Shown piece by piece: positions 28,057 to 57,257 of a stretch of 64,000 nt of DNA. The notes beneath the pieces were generated by a model. The model saw nothing but the letters and a program-made list of their open reading frames with translations, was not told where the DNA came from and did not search any database. Each line of letters begins with the position of its first letter. Position 1 is the first letter of the stretch. The stretch spans positions 22,304 through 86,303 of the forward strand of contig LBWX01000003.1 in assembly GCA_000995065.1 (NCBI GenBank), in the 5' to 3' direction. Position numbers and translations under genes: made by a program. This DNA is from a candidate division CPR2 bacterium GW2011_GWC2_39_35. GTDB lineage: Bacteria > Patescibacteriota > CPR2.

Positions 28057-28145
28057 TGGTGCCCGGGGCGGGACTCGAACCCGCAAGGTGTCGCCACCAC
28101 TGGATTTTAAGTCCAGCGCGTATACCAATTCCGCCACCCGGGCGC
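28057..28145 (-). tRNA. tRNA-Leu (anticodon TAA), long variable arm, CCA encoded
   Basis: The reverse complement folds as GCGCCCG acceptor, anticodon loop CTTAAAA, T-arm GGTTCGAGTCC, 3' CACCA. Confidence 0.85.
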
Positions 28146-28234
28146 TTTTAGAATTAAGAATTATGAATAACGTATAAAGAACATACAAAAAAATAATACT
28201 TAATTCTTAACTCGTTATTCTTTATTCCGAATCA

Positions 28235-28308
28235 TGGAGGCCTCGACCGGATTTGAACCGGTGTACGCGGTTTTGCAGACCGCTGCGTAGCCACTCCGCC
28301 ACGAGGCC
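28235..28308 (-). tRNA. tRNA-Cys (anticodon GCA), CCA encoded
   Basis: The reverse complement GGCCTCG...anticodon loop CTGCAAA...GGTTCAAATCC...CGAGGCCTCCA. Confidence 0.85.
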
Positions 28309-28311
28309 AAA

Positions 28312-28761
28312 TTATCGTAGGGCAACTTGATCCGGTGCAATTATTTTGCCGAAATCATCCGCTCTTTCAGCCGTTTGATCGTTGATTCCCAGACTTAGAT
28401 AGCTACCATCAGCGGCCTTAAAATCCCAAAACTTTTCCGATTCACCCTTTTTAAATATCTCTTCTCCGAACGTCTCTTCAGCAGTCGCACGAGCAGTAAA
28501 AAGAAAATCAAGCCTCTTTCCCATAAATTCCAGGCTTTCTGGAAAGGGCTCCTCAAAAGGAGTCTCAATCGGTTTTACCAAAATATAACTATTGGATTCT
28601 TCATCATCGGCAAACACATAACCGCCACTCAAAAAACATTTTACATAATATGTTCCATCATCAAAACGAAATTTAATAACTTCTTTTACAGAGAATTCTT
28701 TACCTTCAACCAGTAACTTCGCATTCGGTTTAATTTTTGAACGAAACACATTAACTTCCAT
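28312..28761 (-). CDS. hypothetical protein embedded in the tRNA array
   Basis: 149-aa ORF between tRNA-Gly and tRNA-Cys; acidic, no TM; no family recognised. Confidence 0.45.
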   Translation of the reverse strand: MEVNVFRSKIKPNAKLLVEGKEFSVKEVIKFRFDDGTYYVKCFLSGGYVFADDEESNSYILVKPIETPFEEPFPESLEFMGKRLDFLFTARATAEETFGEEIFKKGESEKFWDFKAADGSYLSLGINDQTAERADDFGKIIAPDQVALR

Positions 28762-28780
28762 CTTCTACCTCTAAATTAAA

Positions 28781-28855
28781 TGGAGCGGACGAGCGGAATC
28801 GAACCGCCATCTTAGCCTTGGCAAGGCTACGTAATAACCACTATACGACGCCCGC
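28781..28855 (-). tRNA. tRNA-Gly (anticodon GCC), CCA encoded
   Basis: Anticodon stem TAGCC/GGCTA, loop TTGCCAA; T-arm GGTTCGATTCC. Confidence 0.85.
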
Positions 28856-28918
28856 ATATTTATTTATTTTTCAAATTCTCTATAAAACAAGCCTATCCAA
28901 TTGTAAAAGAACTTTATA

Positions 28919-28993
28919 TGGTGGCGAGGGGCAGAATCGAACTGCCCACGCAAGGATTTTCAGTCCTTCGCTCTACCACTGAGCTACCCCGCC
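28919..28993 (-). tRNA. tRNA-Phe (anticodon GAA), CCA encoded
   Basis: The reverse complement GGCGGGGTAGCTCAGTGGTAGAGC...loop CTGAAAA...GGTTCGATTCTGCCCCTCGCCACCA; the plus-strand ORF 28918-29115 is therefore spurious. Confidence 0.9.
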
Positions 28994-29169
28994 GTGTTCA
29001 GATTTCGGATATCAGACATCGGATTTCTGAAAATCCGACCTCCGAACTCAGATATCTGACATCCGAATTTGGCTTGCCATTTGAAGCCATTCACGAAACT
29101 TGGTTGTTAAACTGAGCAGTCCTACTACGCTAAAGCTTCGTAGGACATTTTTCGCCTCGCGGCGAAAAA

Positions 29170-29246
29170 TGGTGGGCGCTACAGGACTCGAACCTGTGAC
29201 CTACTGGGTGTAAACCAGTCGCTCTAGCCAACTGAGCTAAGCGCCC
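29170..29246 (-). tRNA. tRNA-Val (anticodon TAC), CCA encoded
   Basis: The reverse complement GGGCGCTTAGCTCAGTTGGCTAGAGC...loop TTTACAC...GGTTCGAGTCC...GCGCCCACCA. Confidence 0.9.
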
Positions 29247-29402
29247 GTGTTTCTTTTTCATACTCAAAACAGCAAAAATATATTAACATAAAAACAAAAA
29301 TTTTGGAATAATTTTTAAGCAAGGATTAAGAATAAAGTATAAAGAATGAAGGTTTTTAAAATTGCTTAATGCTTACTACTTAATACTATATACTTCTTCA
29401 AC

Positions 29403-29489
29403 TGGTGCCGAGGACAGGACTTGAACCTGCACAGGCTTGCGCCCACATGCACCTCAAGCATGCGTGTATACCAATTCCACCACCTCGGC
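29403..29489 (-). tRNA. tRNA-Leu (anticodon GAG), long variable arm, CCA encoded
   Basis: The reverse complement GCCGAGGTGGTGGAATTGGTA...loop CTTGAGG...GGTTCAAGTCC...CCTCGGCACCA. Confidence 0.85.
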
Positions 29490-53870: not shown

Positions 53871-54320
53871 TTAAGATTCTGCACCTACTAGCACAAATCC
53901 AATCTTTGATGCAGATTCAACCGGAAGCTTGTTGGCTAGCCAATCATCCATGCCCCCTTGATGTACAAAAACCGATAATTTATTTTCTTTAAACAGATTT
54001 ATTGCCTCAGAAATATCATTGGTATCCTTACCGGTAACAATATAAGACCTGTCTTTGGGCAAATTTTCGATTACTTTTCTAAGATCATCGATATTATAAT
54101 TCATGGCATTCGGAATATGGCCACTCTTAAATGAAGATGAATCTCTAATATCTAAAATAATATATTCATTATTATTTTTCTCGACTATTTGATAGACCTG
54201 GTTTGAGGTTATTATTCCTTCGTGTTTTTCACCTGTCATTCTTTTAGCCAGAACGCCGCCCTGCCAGACCACCATAACAAGAACAACAAACCAACAAATC
54301 GGTACATATTTTTTTAACAT
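53871..54320 (-). CDS. rhodanese-like domain protein (membrane-anchored or secreted); the catalytic Cys is apparently absent
   Basis: 149 aa; N-terminal TM; rhodanese fold signature LDIRDSSSFKSGHIPNAMN, but the active-site loop reads YIVTGKDTND (no Cys). Confidence 0.6.
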   Translation of the reverse strand: MLKKYVPICWFVVLVMVVWQGGVLAKRMTGEKHEGIITSNQVYQIVEKNNNEYIILDIRDSSSFKSGHIPNAMNYNIDDLRKVIENLPKDRSYIVTGKDTNDISEAINLFKENKLSVFVHQGGMDDWLANKLPVESASKIGFVLVGAES

Positions 54321-55544: not shown

Positions 55545-56024
55545 TTATTTAGCTTCTTTTGACTTTTCCTCAGCTTCTTCGGTCTTTTCTTCTTTCTCTT
55601 CCTCAGGAGCTTCGGTAGCTTCAGTCACTTCTTCGCTCGTTACCTCTTCGGCCTCCGCTGTTACTTCTTCAGTCTTGGTTTCAGGTACTTTTCCTGTTGC
55701 AGCCTCTTCGGCCTTAACTGGCTTCTCTTCTTTTACTTCTTTCTCTTCCTTTTCCTTAGGTTCAACTCTCTTAATTTCCACCCATTCCGGCATCTTAATT
55801 TTGTGACGCTCAAACAAAATAGCCAAAGAATTAGATGGTTGAGCACCCTTATCGAACCAGCTTTTTACTTTAGCTTCATCAACTTTGAACTCTTTGGAAT
55901 GCGGGTTGTACCAGCCAAGATATTCAATAACTTTTGCGGTAACGTGTCTTCTTGAATCTGCAACAACGATTCTCCAAGTAGCGTACCTTTTCTTCCCTGT
56001 ACGGGTTAATCTCATTCGGATCAA
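55545..56024 (-). CDS. rpsP: 30S ribosomal protein S16 with a long Glu/Lys-rich C-terminal extension
   Basis: MIRMRLTRTGKKRYATWRIVVADSRRHVTAKVIEYLGWYNP. Confidence 0.92.
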   Translation of the reverse strand: MIRMRLTRTGKKRYATWRIVVADSRRHVTAKVIEYLGWYNPHSKEFKVDEAKVKSWFDKGAQPSNSLAILFERHKIKMPEWVEIKRVEPKEKEEKEVKEEKPVKAEEAATGKVPETKTEEVTAEAEEVTSEEVTEATEAPEEEKEEKTEEAEEKSKEAK

Positions 56025-56101
56025 GATTTACTCCTTTTTTCTAAACTTTACTGCTTACTTATTATACATAAAATAACTAAAAAGTCAAATGTCATTCAAA
56101 T

Positions 56102-56182
56102 AAAAAAGAGGCTCTTTGTCGGACTAGAAGGATGGGTATTTGGGTATATACCCATCCTTCTAATCTTTTGAGCCTCTTATAC
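56102..56182 (-). terminator. strong intrinsic terminator after the 82-aa gene
   Basis: Nested perfect stems AAGAGGCTC/GAGCCTCTT and AGAAGGATGGGTAT/ATACCCATCCTTCT, then TTTTTTATTT on the minus strand. Confidence 0.75.
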
Positions 56183-56425
56183 TGCTACTGCTTCGTATAA
56201 ATGCCTGACCGTTGCTCGGGTTGGCACGCACTTTGAACTGATAAAATCAGTCACCTCACAAACCCCCCTGCAACGTTCTCCGGCATTTAAATAGGCTAGG
56301 AAGTGAAATGACATATTGGGATCAATAAGACCCTGCTCCACTCCCTTTCTCTGCTCAATACAGATAGTACATCTACAGATACGTACTATCGCACTATTCT
56401 TCATCAGCATCCCCCTCTTAGACAT
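56177..56425 (-). CDS. Cys-rich small protein (82 aa; CxC-x2-C...C-x3-C), translationally coupled to the upstream gene; GC-richer cassette
   Basis: TAATG overlap with the 182-aa ORF; RICRCTICIEQ...CRGVCE. Confidence 0.45.
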   Translation of the reverse strand: MSKRGMLMKNSAIVRICRCTICIEQRKGVEQGLIDPNMSFHFLAYLNAGERCRGVCEVTDFISSKCVPTRATVRHLYEAVAV

Positions 56426-56973
56426 TAACCGGAAGGCGTTGGAGCTGCATATACAGCACCCGCCGATCTAACCACTTTCCCCGCTCTTGCCGTAAATCTA
56501 ACACACGCTTCACCGCAAAGCAACGGAACAACGACCTGTGTTTGATTGAAGTTGATTATTTCCTCTTCAATCTCTTCTTTGCCAGTCGTATTCAATATCA
56601 GTGCCTGTAGTCTTAATGCTCTTATAAACCGTTCGGTCTCCTTGTGCCCATAGAGACCTTTTGATGCAACGAATGTCATCATGAGCATAGAAACCAAGAA
56701 TGTTAGATCGGGGCCAAAACGATCTAAGCTGACCGAATCGAATTCGAGCCTTCCATTCTTTCTCATTTGAAGCACTTGTGCTGGAGACAAGTACTCCATT
56801 GTGACCGGAGCGGAACTCCCGCTTGCCCGGTCGACCGTAATTTTGCCATCCTTGCCACGGGATACCTTAAACACATCAGCTTCTTCTTTATAGACTTGGA
56901 CAAGTTTTTCCCAGGTAAGAGGAAGACACCCTTTAGCCTGATTTTGCGAAGATTTCCTCTCTTCTTGCGCCAT
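56425..56973 (-). CDS. hypothetical protein (182 aa), GC-richer cassette
   Basis: AAAGGAGTTGTC SD before the ATG; no family recognised. Confidence 0.5.
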   Translation of the reverse strand: MAQEERKSSQNQAKGCLPLTWEKLVQVYKEEADVFKVSRGKDGKITVDRASGSSAPVTMEYLSPAQVLQMRKNGRLEFDSVSLDRFGPDLTFLVSMLMMTFVASKGLYGHKETERFIRALRLQALILNTTGKEEIEEEIINFNQTQVVVPLLCGEACVRFTARAGKVVRSAGAVYAAPTPSG

Positions 56974-57257
56974 GACAACTCCTTTTGTGTTTTTCGAATC
57001 TACAATTCTTGTTACCTTCTCTTGTTTTCTCCGTGGGCAGGACAGCGCTCTTGCTGCGACAAGACTGAATCTCTAACACCTCCTTTAGCATAAATATTTG
57101 ACTATACCCTTGGGCGGGCAGGACATGAGAATGCTGATTTATTATAAATTTAAGGAACTTTTCATAAACTGATATATTTAAAAACTGTACATGAAATTAT
57201 ACAAATAATTAGTGATTATGTCAATGTTTTGTTGGGTTTTACCCATAAATAGCCAGA

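Follow-up and report, generated by a model that had tools for sequence, protein, structure and literature searches.

The cry3A mRNA of Bacillus thuringiensis carries a 5' stabiliser, STAB-SD (Agaisse and Lereclus, 1996; reviewed in PMC4113751). This element resembles a Shine-Dalgarno sequence, lies in a long 5' untranslated region without initiating translation, and is fully complementary to the 3' end of 16S rRNA. Among described systems, it comes closest to the leader of the locus considered here. The closest counterparts of the coding part are coupled bicistrons, in which stop and start codons overlap as TAATG or ATGA, and toxin-antitoxin pairs of the MqsR/MqsA type. The locus also resembles the orphan genes of candidate phyla radiation (CPR) genomes, having no homologues outside one species and carrying only a hypothetical annotation, but it differs from them in that its regulatory frame is retained in related lineages.

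The locus is a pair of small genes between smc and rpsP in a candidate division CPR2 bacterium, and it was analyzed within a 64-kb stretch of DNA, the whole of which is called the window. The two-gene unit is real and carries strong signals. On balance, the pair is probably the form taken in this CPR2 species by an operon of fast-evolving small proteins whose position between smc and rpsP is conserved, and not a foreign insertion. The features of the unit, in the direction of transcription, are as follows:

57220-57233, minus strand: 14-nt block AACAAAACATTGAC, just upstream of the -35 element and including part of it
57196-57224, minus strand: predicted sigma-70-type promoter, TTGACA-17-TATAAT, with 12 of 12 consensus positions
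56974-57189, minus strand: AT-rich 5' leader (37% GC) of about 216 nt, a length derived from the predicted promoter
57116-57125, minus strand: C-rich box 1, TGTCCTGCCC (core TCCTGCCC), the upstream repeat of the original prediction
57077-57084, minus strand: AGGAGGTG, a perfect Shine-Dalgarno-like sequence without a start codon, between the two C-rich boxes
57035-57044, minus strand: C-rich box 2, TGTCCTGCCC, the downstream repeat of the original prediction
56979-56984, minus strand: Shine-Dalgarno sequence AAGGAG of ORF1, 5 nt before the ATG
56425-56973, minus strand: ORF1, the first cistron, encoding a soluble protein of 182 aa with a pI of 8.8
56411-56419, minus strand: Shine-Dalgarno-like AAGAGGGGG, 6 nt upstream of the ORF2 codon M8 and kept in a natural deletion variant
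56177-56425, minus strand: ORF2, the second cistron, encoding a basic protein of 82 aa with six cysteines (75 aa from M8 at 56404)
56098-56178, minus strand: nested-hairpin intrinsic terminator with a U-run, overlapping the stop codon of ORF2
56061-56088, minus strand: rpsP promoter TTGACT-16-TATAAT, with 11 of 12 consensus positions, the downstream boundary of the unit

The two cistrons and their products

The ORFs of 182 and 82 aa had been described as an isolated pair overlapping in TAATG, and this was borne out: an own promoter, ribosome-binding sites and a terminator were all found, and the stop codon of ORF1 shares one base with the start codon of ORF2. Of the shuffles of the region, 0.17% contained an ORF as long as ORF1, and the probability that the frame stays open from its ATG by chance was 5e-5. 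An ORF of 82 codons alone is not improbable (P = 0.35 in shuffles). When coding was scored in six frames, the annotated frame ranked top for both ORFs; the codon score of ORF1 lies at the low edge of real genes, and that of ORF2 lies below all 41 reference genes and within the top 8% of shadow ORFs. In its style, the AAGGAG of ORF1 matches the site of rpsP and other strong ribosome-binding sites in the window. The alternative start of ORF2, M8, is preceded by a Shine-Dalgarno sequence of its own, GAGGGGG, and a gene caller began ORF2 at this codon (75 aa) in one variant contig.

The cysteines of ORF2 (residues 17, 19, 22, 52, 56 and 66) form the pattern CxCxxC ... Cx3C ... C, the first five of them fitting the CxC-x2-C ... 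C-x3-C arrangement that had been noticed originally. CxCxxC (17-22) and Cx3C (52-56) are spaced 29 residues apart, and for the predicted Cys-rich protein the binding of a metal (Zn or Fe) is plausible; no zinc-ribbon or zinc-finger profile of Pfam or NCBIfam matched it. The likeness to MqsR/MqsA-type systems lies in two small adjacent genes, one of them with paired cysteines about 30 residues apart. The pair differs from them in having no sequence or profile similarity and no HTH domain, in its sizes and gene order, which do not fit, and in being a single-copy chromosomal locus at a fixed position.

Neither protein belongs to a recognisable family, in agreement with the original prediction. 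No match at E <= 0.1 was obtained for either of them among the Pfam, NCBIfam, PADLOC and PHROG profiles, none at E <= 1 in PADLOC-DB, and none in a sequence search of the PDB. An exhaustive phmmer search with ORF1 among 1.84 billion representative proteins detected no homologues beyond its own population, and no homologues of either protein were found outside one species among about 15 billion proteins. A word-indexed search with both proteins and the phmmer search with ORF1 matched sequences of the same clonal population only, which belongs to a groundwater bacterium of candidate division CPR2, and these are recorded as hypothetical proteins only (KKR18067.1 and HBG81907.1 for ORF1, and KKR18066.1 for ORF2). 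The pair was not found elsewhere as a conserved two-gene module in these searches, its sequences being confined to their own CPR2 population. One match to a 13-fold repeat protein was discarded as spurious, since it aligned on a 27-residue stretch only. A literature search on CPR2 hypothetical proteins gave nothing relevant. Among the neighbouring genes, 8 of 22 are likewise without any Pfam family.

Structure prediction was also carried out. The AlphaFold2 single-sequence model of ORF1 had a pLDDT of 37 and was unusable. The model of ORF2 consisted mostly of beta strands with a C-terminal helix, at low confidence (pLDDT 64.7), and Foldseek found nothing for it in the PDB at E < 0.1.

The pair had been described as richer in GC than its flanks, at about 48%, and as a candidate for horizontal acquisition. 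The content is indeed raised by about 6 points, but the actual value is 45.8% for both ORFs combined (46.3% for ORF1 and 44.6% for ORF2), against a mean of 39.3% in the window. Among 797-nt windows, the coding part ranks in the top 3.3%, and several other places are equally GC-rich. GC3 is 43-45%, which is within the range of ordinary genes, and the excess resides in GC2. A recently acquired foreign two-gene cassette between smc and rpsP, encoding a regulatory, metal-binding or toxin-like pair, would agree with the raised GC, with a codon usage that does not rise above the low edge of host genes and with protein sequences found only in this species. The host-like GC3 and the ordinary regions of the window that are as GC-rich argue against such a cassette. 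Moreover, no integrase, transposase, tRNA or flanking (att-like) repeats were found, and searches of viral contigs, phages and plasmids gave no match to the pair, leaving it without a donor.

Promoter, leader and terminator

The predicted promoter of the pair is the only perfect match to the consensus within the 64 kb, in which 0.02 would be expected, and it puts the predicted transcription start near 57189. The AACAAAACATTGAC block has one copy in the window and one in the related lineage L018 (at 5950), both identical and both at this promoter. No terminator was found between smc and the promoter, so that read-through from smc is possible. At the other end of the unit, a very stable nested-hairpin terminator with a T-run had been predicted, and the calculations agree with it: an inner stem of 18 bp sits within an outer stem of 9 bp, the U-run follows, and the fold reaches -42.6 kcal/mol (z = -10.1 versus shuffles). 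No repeats of the terminator arms were found elsewhere in the window.

Two direct repeats flanking a TATAGT -10-like box had also been reported upstream of ORF1 and proposed as operator sites. The repeats are real, but their coordinates (57034-57046 and 57113-57124) and their spacing of 78 nt had to be corrected: GGGCAGGACA is found exactly at 57035-57044 and 57116-57125, 81 nt from start to start, and the window holds just these two exact copies. A repeat of at least 10 nt appeared in 5.9% of shuffles of the 284-nt spacer, and a GC-rich 10-mer repeat in 0 of 2000. The TATAGT box does lie between the repeats (57101-57106, minus strand), but it is not the promoter; only a 3/6 candidate -35 element could be seen by eye, and the promoter scan did not report it. 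Since the perfect TTGACA-17-TATAAT promoter is located at 57224-57196, both repeats belong to the transcribed leader (positions about +66 and +147 of the predicted transcript), which does not agree with a role as operators around a -10 box.

Between the two boxes lies AGGAGGTG, which has three copies in the window when both strands are counted (128 kb of strand). By direct reading, no ATG, GTG or TTG was found 4-14 nt downstream of it in the window or in the related lineages L018 and L020. Its predicted duplex with the anti-Shine-Dalgarno sequence, assumed to be canonical because the 3' end of the 16S rRNA of this organism lies outside the window, has an energy of -16 kcal/mol, against -9.5 to -12.3 kcal/mol for the ribosome-binding sites of the ORFs. 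As in STAB-SD of cry3A, a Shine-Dalgarno-like sequence, fully complementary to the (canonical) 16S 3' end, is thus placed in a long 5' untranslated region without initiating translation, about 110 nt upstream of the real start, and it is conserved across lineages. In contrast to STAB-SD, AGGAGGTG lies farther from the predicted 5' end (about 105 nt) and does not adjoin it, unless the RNA is processed; furthermore, it is flanked by conserved C-rich boxes, which the cry3A element lacks, and its host is a CPR bacterium. By analogy, the putative leader element may have a STAB-SD-like role in binding 30S subunits and protecting the mRNA from 5'-3' decay.

The leader has no stable fold. Compared with shuffles, its fold had a z-score of +0.99, and those of the leaders of the two relatives were +0.67 and +1.37, none of them better than shuffles; the RNAalifold consensus energy of the leaders was -1.5 kcal/mol. 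A search of Rfam with the leader gave no match at E <= 10. A riboswitch or another Rfam-type cis-regulatory leader was therefore rejected, there being no relevant match and no stable conserved fold, and so was a switch based on the pairing of a box with the Shine-Dalgarno-like sequence or with a ribosome-binding site, as no stable, consistent or covarying pairing was observed.

The same site in related lineages

The lineages L018 and L020 share the gene order rnc-smc-gap-rpsP-KH-trmD-fdx-uvrB with the window, and their rpsP products are 74-78% identical to that of the window over the first 85 residues. A scan of the genome collection with TrmD gave only distant phyla, at no more than 52% identity. 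When the gap was compared by blastn with those of L018 and L020, only about 44 nt from the rpsP promoter to rpsP and the 14-nt promoter block aligned. Each of the two gaps nevertheless contains a promoter with 11 of 12 consensus positions on the same strand, and the leaders of the window, L018 and L020 have a common order of box, AGGAGGTG, box, and then a Shine-Dalgarno sequence and ATGGC, a homology made up of short motifs in three lineages, two of which are close to each other. The boxes follow TCCYGCCC; the equivalent of box 1 is TCCCGCCC in both relatives, and that of box 2 is ATCCGCCC in L018 and degenerate in L020. The 17 kb of L018 and the 10 kb of L020 hold one copy of AGGAGGTG each, and in both cases it lies in this leader. 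A nested-hairpin terminator was found at the matching place in L018, the relative in which it was folded (-34.6 kcal/mol, z = -4.1). In the more distant lineage L021, a unit of promoter, ORF and terminator also lies upstream of rpsP, but without the leader motifs.

In both L018 and L020, the leader is followed by a first ORF and by an overlapping or adjacent small Cys-rich second ORF (ORFb), the overlap in L018 being 4 nt. The first ORF has 182 aa in the window and 59 or 62 aa in the relatives, and in all three lineages its frame is uninterrupted between the conserved start and the second ORF, with chance probabilities of 5e-5, 0.025 and 0.023. Its sequence cannot be aligned even between L018 and L020. 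No similarity was detected between ORF1 and the first ORFs of the relatives, nor, at the level of DNA or by tblastx, between the ORFs of the pair and the gaps of the relatives. An overlap of the two cistrons is seen with one base here, with 4 nt in L018 and as TGATG in the deletion variant, and what is unusual for a coupled bicistron is a first cistron unconstrained in sequence and length among lineages. This lack of constraint (59, 62 and 182 aa) suggests that the translation of the first cistron matters more than its product.

ORFb encodes basic proteins of 63-65 aa whose 5-6 cysteines are grouped in two clusters, one N-terminal and one central, and these proteins are also orphans, confined to their own lineage. 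Like ORF2, it lies on the same strand as a second cistron of similar size, with a hairpin terminator and then the rpsP promoter downstream of it. Between L018 and L020, ORFb shows 17, 18 and 40 differences at the first, second and third codon positions (64 sites per position), with pN of 0.26 and pS of 0.91, and this clear third-position excess of substitutions indicates that the second cistron of the relatives is coding. It also evolves fast: identity between these two lineages is 54% for ORFb, 86.5% for SMC and 97% for S16. Since SMC identity falls to 44% at the distance between the window and the relatives, an orthologue of ORFb would be expected to be unrecognisable in the window. The best signal between ORF2 and ORFb was a weak 16-column hhalign match of CKISVCIAEAAGV to CRCTICIEQRKGV (P = 0.028), and when alignments were compared with shuffles, P was 0.016 for L020 and 0.19 for L018. 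The matched segment is C-terminal in ORFb and N-terminal in ORF2, and the two proteins do not align significantly. No within-lineage hypervariability was found in the relatives, and hence nothing points to an active diversification mechanism.

These comparisons also bear on an RNA feature, in which the functional element would be a leader or small RNA that is strongly transcribed and carries C-rich boxes and a 30S-binding site, and the ORFs would be fortuitous or marginally translated. The conservation between the window and the relatives is limited to the promoter, the leader motifs and the terminator type, the codon scores of the ORFs are borderline, ORF1 has no confident fold and the first-ORF region is unconstrained between L018 and L020, all of which would be compatible with it. 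We consider it unlikely, given the 182 codons of ORF1, which are improbable by chance, its strong and correctly spaced Shine-Dalgarno sequence, the third-position excess in the second ORF of the relatives, and leaders that have neither a stable or covarying structure nor a match in Rfam.

In the Bacillus-type gene order, ftsY follows smc and ffh precedes rpsP. The remark that these genes usually sit here is correct for that order, and a decayed remnant of ftsY, ffh, ylxM or another known gene would be in keeping with it. The relatives L018, L019/L020 and L021/L022 also lack both genes at this site, so that the absence is ancestral and unconnected to the two-gene unit. In addition, a Pfam scan of the two ORFs and of all other reading frames of the region gave no match, no SRP54-type GTPase domain was detected in any frame, and no SRP-type P-loop (GxxGxGKTT) was found anywhere in the window. 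A remnant of this kind is effectively refuted.

The promoter block, the leader motifs, the ORF layout and the type of terminator are therefore common to the same site in the relatives, and this also speaks against an imported cassette, in spite of the absence of DNA or tblastx similarity between the ORFs and the relatives' gaps. Because the promoter, leader and terminator frame is kept and the coding sequence is not, rapid divergence at a fixed locus accounts for the orphan status of the pair better than import does, and we regard acquisition as improbable. Two observations had been named in advance as speaking against the acquired pair. A lack of conservation of either ORF was found at the protein level. 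To the other, orthologues of ordinary composition at this position in all relatives, the locus comes close in an altered form: position and regulatory layout are conserved, and protein sequences are not.

Possible function and natural variation of the pair

A type II toxin-antitoxin or small defence/conflict module under arms-race evolution was considered, in line with the toxin-like or regulatory character originally suggested. Two small genes coupled through TAATG under a single promoter and a single terminator, the rapid sequence turnover at the locus, a region between conserved core operons that differs among lineages, and the repeated boxes of the leader, which would be autoregulatory operators, are all compatible with such a module. 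However, no match to PADLOC, Pfam, NCBIfam or PHROG profiles was found, including those of HTH, RHH and AbrB antitoxin domains, and BLASTP of ORF2 against an E. coli MqsA sequence entered by hand gave nothing (E = 2.9). The pair is single-copy: no paralogous DNA was found elsewhere in the window, nor has the pair spread to other genomes. The boxes, located well downstream of the promoter, are retained among the lineages, in contrast to the proteins, and this argues against the latter as binders of the boxes. A toxin-antitoxin or conflict module is thus hardly likely.

For the positionally conserved small-protein operon that we favour, the following mechanism is proposed. The pair would be transcribed strongly and independently of its neighbours from the perfect promoter. 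The start-less AGGAGGTG may bind 30S subunits and stabilise or load the mRNA, as STAB-SD does in Bacillus, and ribosomes ending ORF1 would re-initiate on ORF2. ORF2 is the likelier functional product, possibly a small basic protein that binds Zn or Fe with its CxCxxC and Cx3C motifs. ORF1 might encode a partner protein specific to the lineage, or serve mainly as a translated spacer that brings ribosomes to ORF2. The cellular role of the pair is most likely accessory.

A further and more doubtful reading is that CPR2-type bacteria keep a high-expression slot upstream of the S16 operon, which may be composed of the promoter, the leader with its C-rich boxes and start-less anti-16S sequence, and the terminator. 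The first cistron, unconstrained, continuously translated and freely turning over, may then act as a cradle of new proteins, and the second would be a fast-evolving orthologue involved in conflict or host interaction. If so, ORF1 would be a de novo or radically re-written protein, dated by the regulatory frame of its locus.

Taken alone, the pair adds two more hypothetical proteins to those of a CPR genome, and describing it as a toxin system or an acquired island would be unwarranted. Its value is modest, methodological and evolutionary, and lies in a regulatory skeleton that survives in relatives while the first cistron has been wholly replaced and the second is diverging very fast, which makes the locus a dated frame in which an orphan protein sequence arises. 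Additionally, the leader motif, C-rich boxes around a start-less Shine-Dalgarno sequence, is compact and testable, in a group whose gene regulation is almost unstudied.

All contigs matching the pair come from one clonal population, and as they are clonal their variation is of no use for selection tests. This variation consists of one SNP, at 56449 in ORF1, which is synonymous, and one deletion variant, the natural contig L001, which lacks the following segment:

56418-56512, minus strand: segment absent in L001, an in-frame deletion of 96 nt when a one-base ambiguity at the junction is counted

The deletion cuts ORF1 after Cys153 and removes codons 1-3 of ORF2. ORF2 as read from M8 and its Shine-Dalgarno sequence remain intact in this variant, and the deletion re-creates a stop/start overlap, TGATG, with M8.

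An orphan two-gene unit between smc and rpsP

The minus-strand unit lying between smc and rpsP, comprising ORF1 and ORF2, is best read from its sequence and position as an orphan operon whose locus is conserved in position and evolves fast. It is a real feature, and the original description of it held except for some details corrected below. The following features were located in the window.

Features of the unit
57224-57196, minus: predicted promoter, TTGACA-17-TATAAT, perfect match (12/12 consensus)
57035-57044 and 57116-57125: repeat GGGCAGGACA, exactly two copies in the 64-kb window
56425-56973, minus: ORF1, 182 aa, 3 cysteines, mildly basic, soluble
56177-56425, minus: ORF2, 82 aa (75 aa from M8), mildly basic, soluble
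56098-56178, minus: nested-hairpin terminator followed by a U-run, -42.6 kcal/mol, z = -10.1 versus shuffles

A predicted autonomous unit can be read directly from the DNA: the promoter fits the consensus, the leader is long and unstructured, the two cistrons are coupled, and the terminator is strong, as originally described. The coupled pair was also recovered as predicted: TAATG is a one-base overlap of the ORF1 stop and the ORF2 start, and ORF2 is indeed Cys-rich, with six cysteines (residues 17, 19, 22, 52, 56, and 66).

An ORF of 182 codons was reached in 0.17% of region shuffles, and AAGGAG is found 5 nt 5' of the ORF1 ATG, resembling the sites of rpsP and other strong sites in the window. 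Six-frame codon scoring of ORF1 was positive in the annotated frame only; without stop codons, its score lay at the bottom end of the range of 41 reference genes and at the top end of that of 53 shadow ORFs. The codon score of ORF2 was below all 41 reference genes and within the top 8% of shadow ORFs, and its length by itself was not improbable in region shuffles. ORF2 runs from the ORF1 stop to the terminator, its stop codon falling within the outer stem of the nested hairpin, and a GAGGGGG Shine-Dalgarno is situated 6 nt 5' of the alternative start M8.

The population is clonal. ORF1 was found exactly in 24 contigs, all ten aligned loci with full-length ORF1 matched the window at ≥99.8%, and the single SNP (56449) is third-position and synonymous. 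A short variant contig of the same population (L001, 1-1168, JGI 3300024999) has lost 96 nt, in frame, spanning the ORF1/ORF2 junction (window 56418-56512, one base of microhomology). ORF1 is cut short after Cys153, and the first three codons of ORF2 are gone. The Shine-Dalgarno of ORF2 and M8 are kept, and a TGATG overlap is re-created.

Both proteins, deposited as hypothetical (ORF1, KKR18067.1 and HBG81907.1; ORF2, KKR18066.1) from this groundwater candidate division CPR2 bacterium, lacked a family in Pfam, NCBIfam, PADLOC, and PHROG, as had been anticipated, and the idea of a toxin-like or regulatory pair found no backing there. A word-indexed search of 5.8 billion clusters returned only the proteins of the deletion variant. 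Exhaustive phmmer of ORF1 against 1.84 billion representatives added only a 1194-aa repeat protein, regarded as spurious since it matched 13 times on a 27-residue stretch. Neither protein had a match in the PDB sequence search, and searches of the other reading frames of the region and of the rest of the window gave nothing. The predicted model of ORF1 was unusable (pLDDT 37); that of ORF2 (pLDDT 64.7) showed beta strands and a C-terminal helix, and retrieved nothing at E < 0.1 with Foldseek. Of the two, ORF2 would more probably be the functional product, and its cysteines may bind metal; ORF1 could be a partner specific to the lineage, or serve mainly for coupling.

The unit had been proposed as a candidate horizontally acquired cassette of about 48% GC. 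Its coding GC is richer than the window (39.3%), but reaches 45.8% (ORF1 46.3%, ORF2 44.6%), which puts it among the top 3.3% of windows of that size, together with several ordinary regions. GC3 is 0.43-0.45, normal for the genome, and the excess sits in GC2; therefore, the GC reflects amino-acid composition. Acquisition is disfavored by this normal GC3, by the lack of matches among viral contigs, phages, and plasmids, and by a layout common to relatives at the same site. The GC maximum among window ORFs (53.7%) belongs to an 89-aa gene at 42549-42818 (minus), SpoVS-like by eye.

Promoter and leader

The perfect TTGACA-17-TATAAT was the single match in the window in the promoter scan, versus 0.02 expected, and no terminator was found between smc and this promoter. 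The predicted leader is about 216 nt long and AT-rich, is no more stably folded than its shuffles (z = +0.99) and has no match in Rfam. In spacer shuffles a repeat of at least 10 nt arose in about 6%, and a GC-rich one in 0/2000. The two repeats of the original prediction, which correspond to the two C-rich boxes (TCCYGCCC-type leader motifs), do occur exactly twice, but not around the promoter: given its position, both repeats and the TATAGT box fall inside the predicted transcribed leader. The boxes did not pair consistently with either Shine-Dalgarno element, and no covarying structure was found in the leaders.

The same site in related lineages

Scanning metagenomes with the N-terminus of S16 retrieved three related lineages: L018 (also L025, L026), L019/L020 (also L027-L029), and the more distant L021/L022. 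The order rnc-smc-[gap]-rpsP-KH is kept in all three, and trmD-fdx-uvrB also in the longer contigs L018 and L021/L022. The locus had been noted as the usual place of ftsY/ffh. These genes are missing here, and no SRP-type P-loop was found anywhere in the window, but this is not peculiar to it: the gap lacks ftsY/ffh in all three related lineages, so the absence is ancestral to the group.

At this same position L018 and L020 hold the unit layout. No ORF in the gaps of the related lineages resembles ORF1 or ORF2; blastn aligned only a 14-nt block and some 44 nt of gap DNA at the rpsP promoter. An initial impression of a variable slot with unrelated orphans gave way to the layout conservation found afterwards, for which three lineages were informative. 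In each, the unit shares its strand with smc and rpsP.

Conserved layout, in 5' to 3' order
Promoter: window 57224-57196, 12/12; L018 5959-5986, 11/12; L020 6467-6494, 11/12
C-rich box 1: window TCCTGCCC; L018 TCCCGCCC; L020 TCCCGCCC
Start-less Shine-Dalgarno: AGGAGGTG in all three
C-rich box 2: window TCCTGCCC; L018 ATCCGCCC; L020 degenerate
Leader fold z: window +0.99; L018 +0.67; L020 +1.37
First ORF (strong Shine-Dalgarno, begins ATGGC): window 182 aa; L018 59 aa; L020 62 aa
Junction: window 1-nt overlap; L018 4-nt overlap; L020 19-nt gap
Cys-rich second ORF: window 82 aa (75 from M8); L018 65 aa; L020 63 aa
Nested-hairpin terminator and U-run: window -42.6 kcal/mol, z = -10.1; L018 -34.6 kcal/mol, z = -4.1
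Next element 3': rpsP promoter in all three

AACAAAACATTGAC is exactly common to the L018 and window promoters. AGGAGGTG occurs three times in the window's 128 kb of strand and once each in L018 (17 kb) and L020 (10 kb), both lone copies being in this leader; for TCCYGCCC, the window has roughly one copy per 16 kb of strand. Chance is a very unlikely explanation for finding these motifs together, in one order and behind a common promoter block.

The second ORF of the relatives (ORFb), a Cys-rich orphan of 63-65 aa just 5' of rpsP (L018 6311-6508; L020 6853-7044; L019 3991-4182), is 54% identical between L018 and L020, versus 86.5% for SMC and 97% for the S16 N-terminus. Substitutions at codon positions 1, 2, and 3 (64 sites each) number 17, 18, and 40; this third-position excess, with pN 0.26 versus pS 0.91, identifies it as a real, fast-evolving gene. 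SMC is 44% identical between the window and L018, a distance at which an ORFb orthologue would be expected to be unrecognizable. The sole trace is a 16-column hhalign match of CKISVCIAEAAGV to CRCTICIEQRKGV (P = 0.028; shuffle tests, P = 0.016 and 0.19), only suggestive of kinship between ORF2 and ORFb. The C-terminal ISVCIAEAAGVSRMSIN stretch of ORFb has a truncated helix-turn-helix-like look.

Even L018 and L020 did not align with each other in the first-ORF region, whether as DNA or in any frame. In 3/3 lineages, the frame that begins at the conserved Shine-Dalgarno and ATG is kept open as far as the second ORF (chance 5e-5 for the window, 0.025 and 0.023 for the other two). An open but unalignable first ORF would fit selection to keep the region translated better than selection for a particular protein. 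Hypervariability was not found within the individual lineages.

Possible role of the leader, and other features

With the canonical form assumed, the start-less AGGAGGTG would pair with the anti-Shine-Dalgarno; the duplex is computed at -16 kcal/mol, versus -9.5 to -12.3 for the ribosome-binding sites of the ORFs. No start codon lies at initiation distance from it in the window, L018, or L020. The closest precedent may be the STAB-SD stabilizer of cry3A mRNA, a start-less Shine-Dalgarno where 30S subunit binding blocks RNase J1 (PMC4113751). Because the boxes are conserved, unlike the proteins, any binder of the boxes is more likely to be a conserved host factor than ORF1 or ORF2. The locus is a known kind of thing, and its regulatory frame is modestly interesting.

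In L019/L020, an extra 247-aa membrane protein without significant Pfam family (L020 5646-6389, minus) is encoded between smc and the conserved promoter on the opposite strand, so the smc-side part of the gap is also variable. Directly 5' of rpsP, the more distant lineage has a small autonomous unit as well (L021 9461-9957), in which an 11/12 promoter is followed by an orphan ORF (about 96-155 aa) and a GC-rich hairpin terminator, and then by the rpsP promoter; it is without C-rich box and AGGAGGTG motifs, and has broken EamA transporter fragments upstream. Codon 24 of rpsP is TAA in L020 (7641-7643) and TCA in L018, the window, and the near-identical L019; the TAA is probably due to a sequencing error or to a rare nonsense allele. 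S16 itself (55545-56024, minus; 159 aa) has a long acidic Glu/Lys/Thr-rich C-terminal extension, present and poorly conserved in relatives. A rhodanese-domain gene overlapping the trmD end (53871-54320, minus) is another lineage-specific gene of the neighborhood; L018 lacks it, and there a ferredoxin gene directly follows trmD. Elsewhere in the window, a cyclic-di-GMP-II riboswitch aptamer (RF01786; 49075-49160, minus; 62.4 bits versus a gathering score of 53.5) lies upstream of a 115-aa ORF (48555-48902) with no Pfam hit on record, and six tRNA genes are clustered at 28060-29489 (minus).
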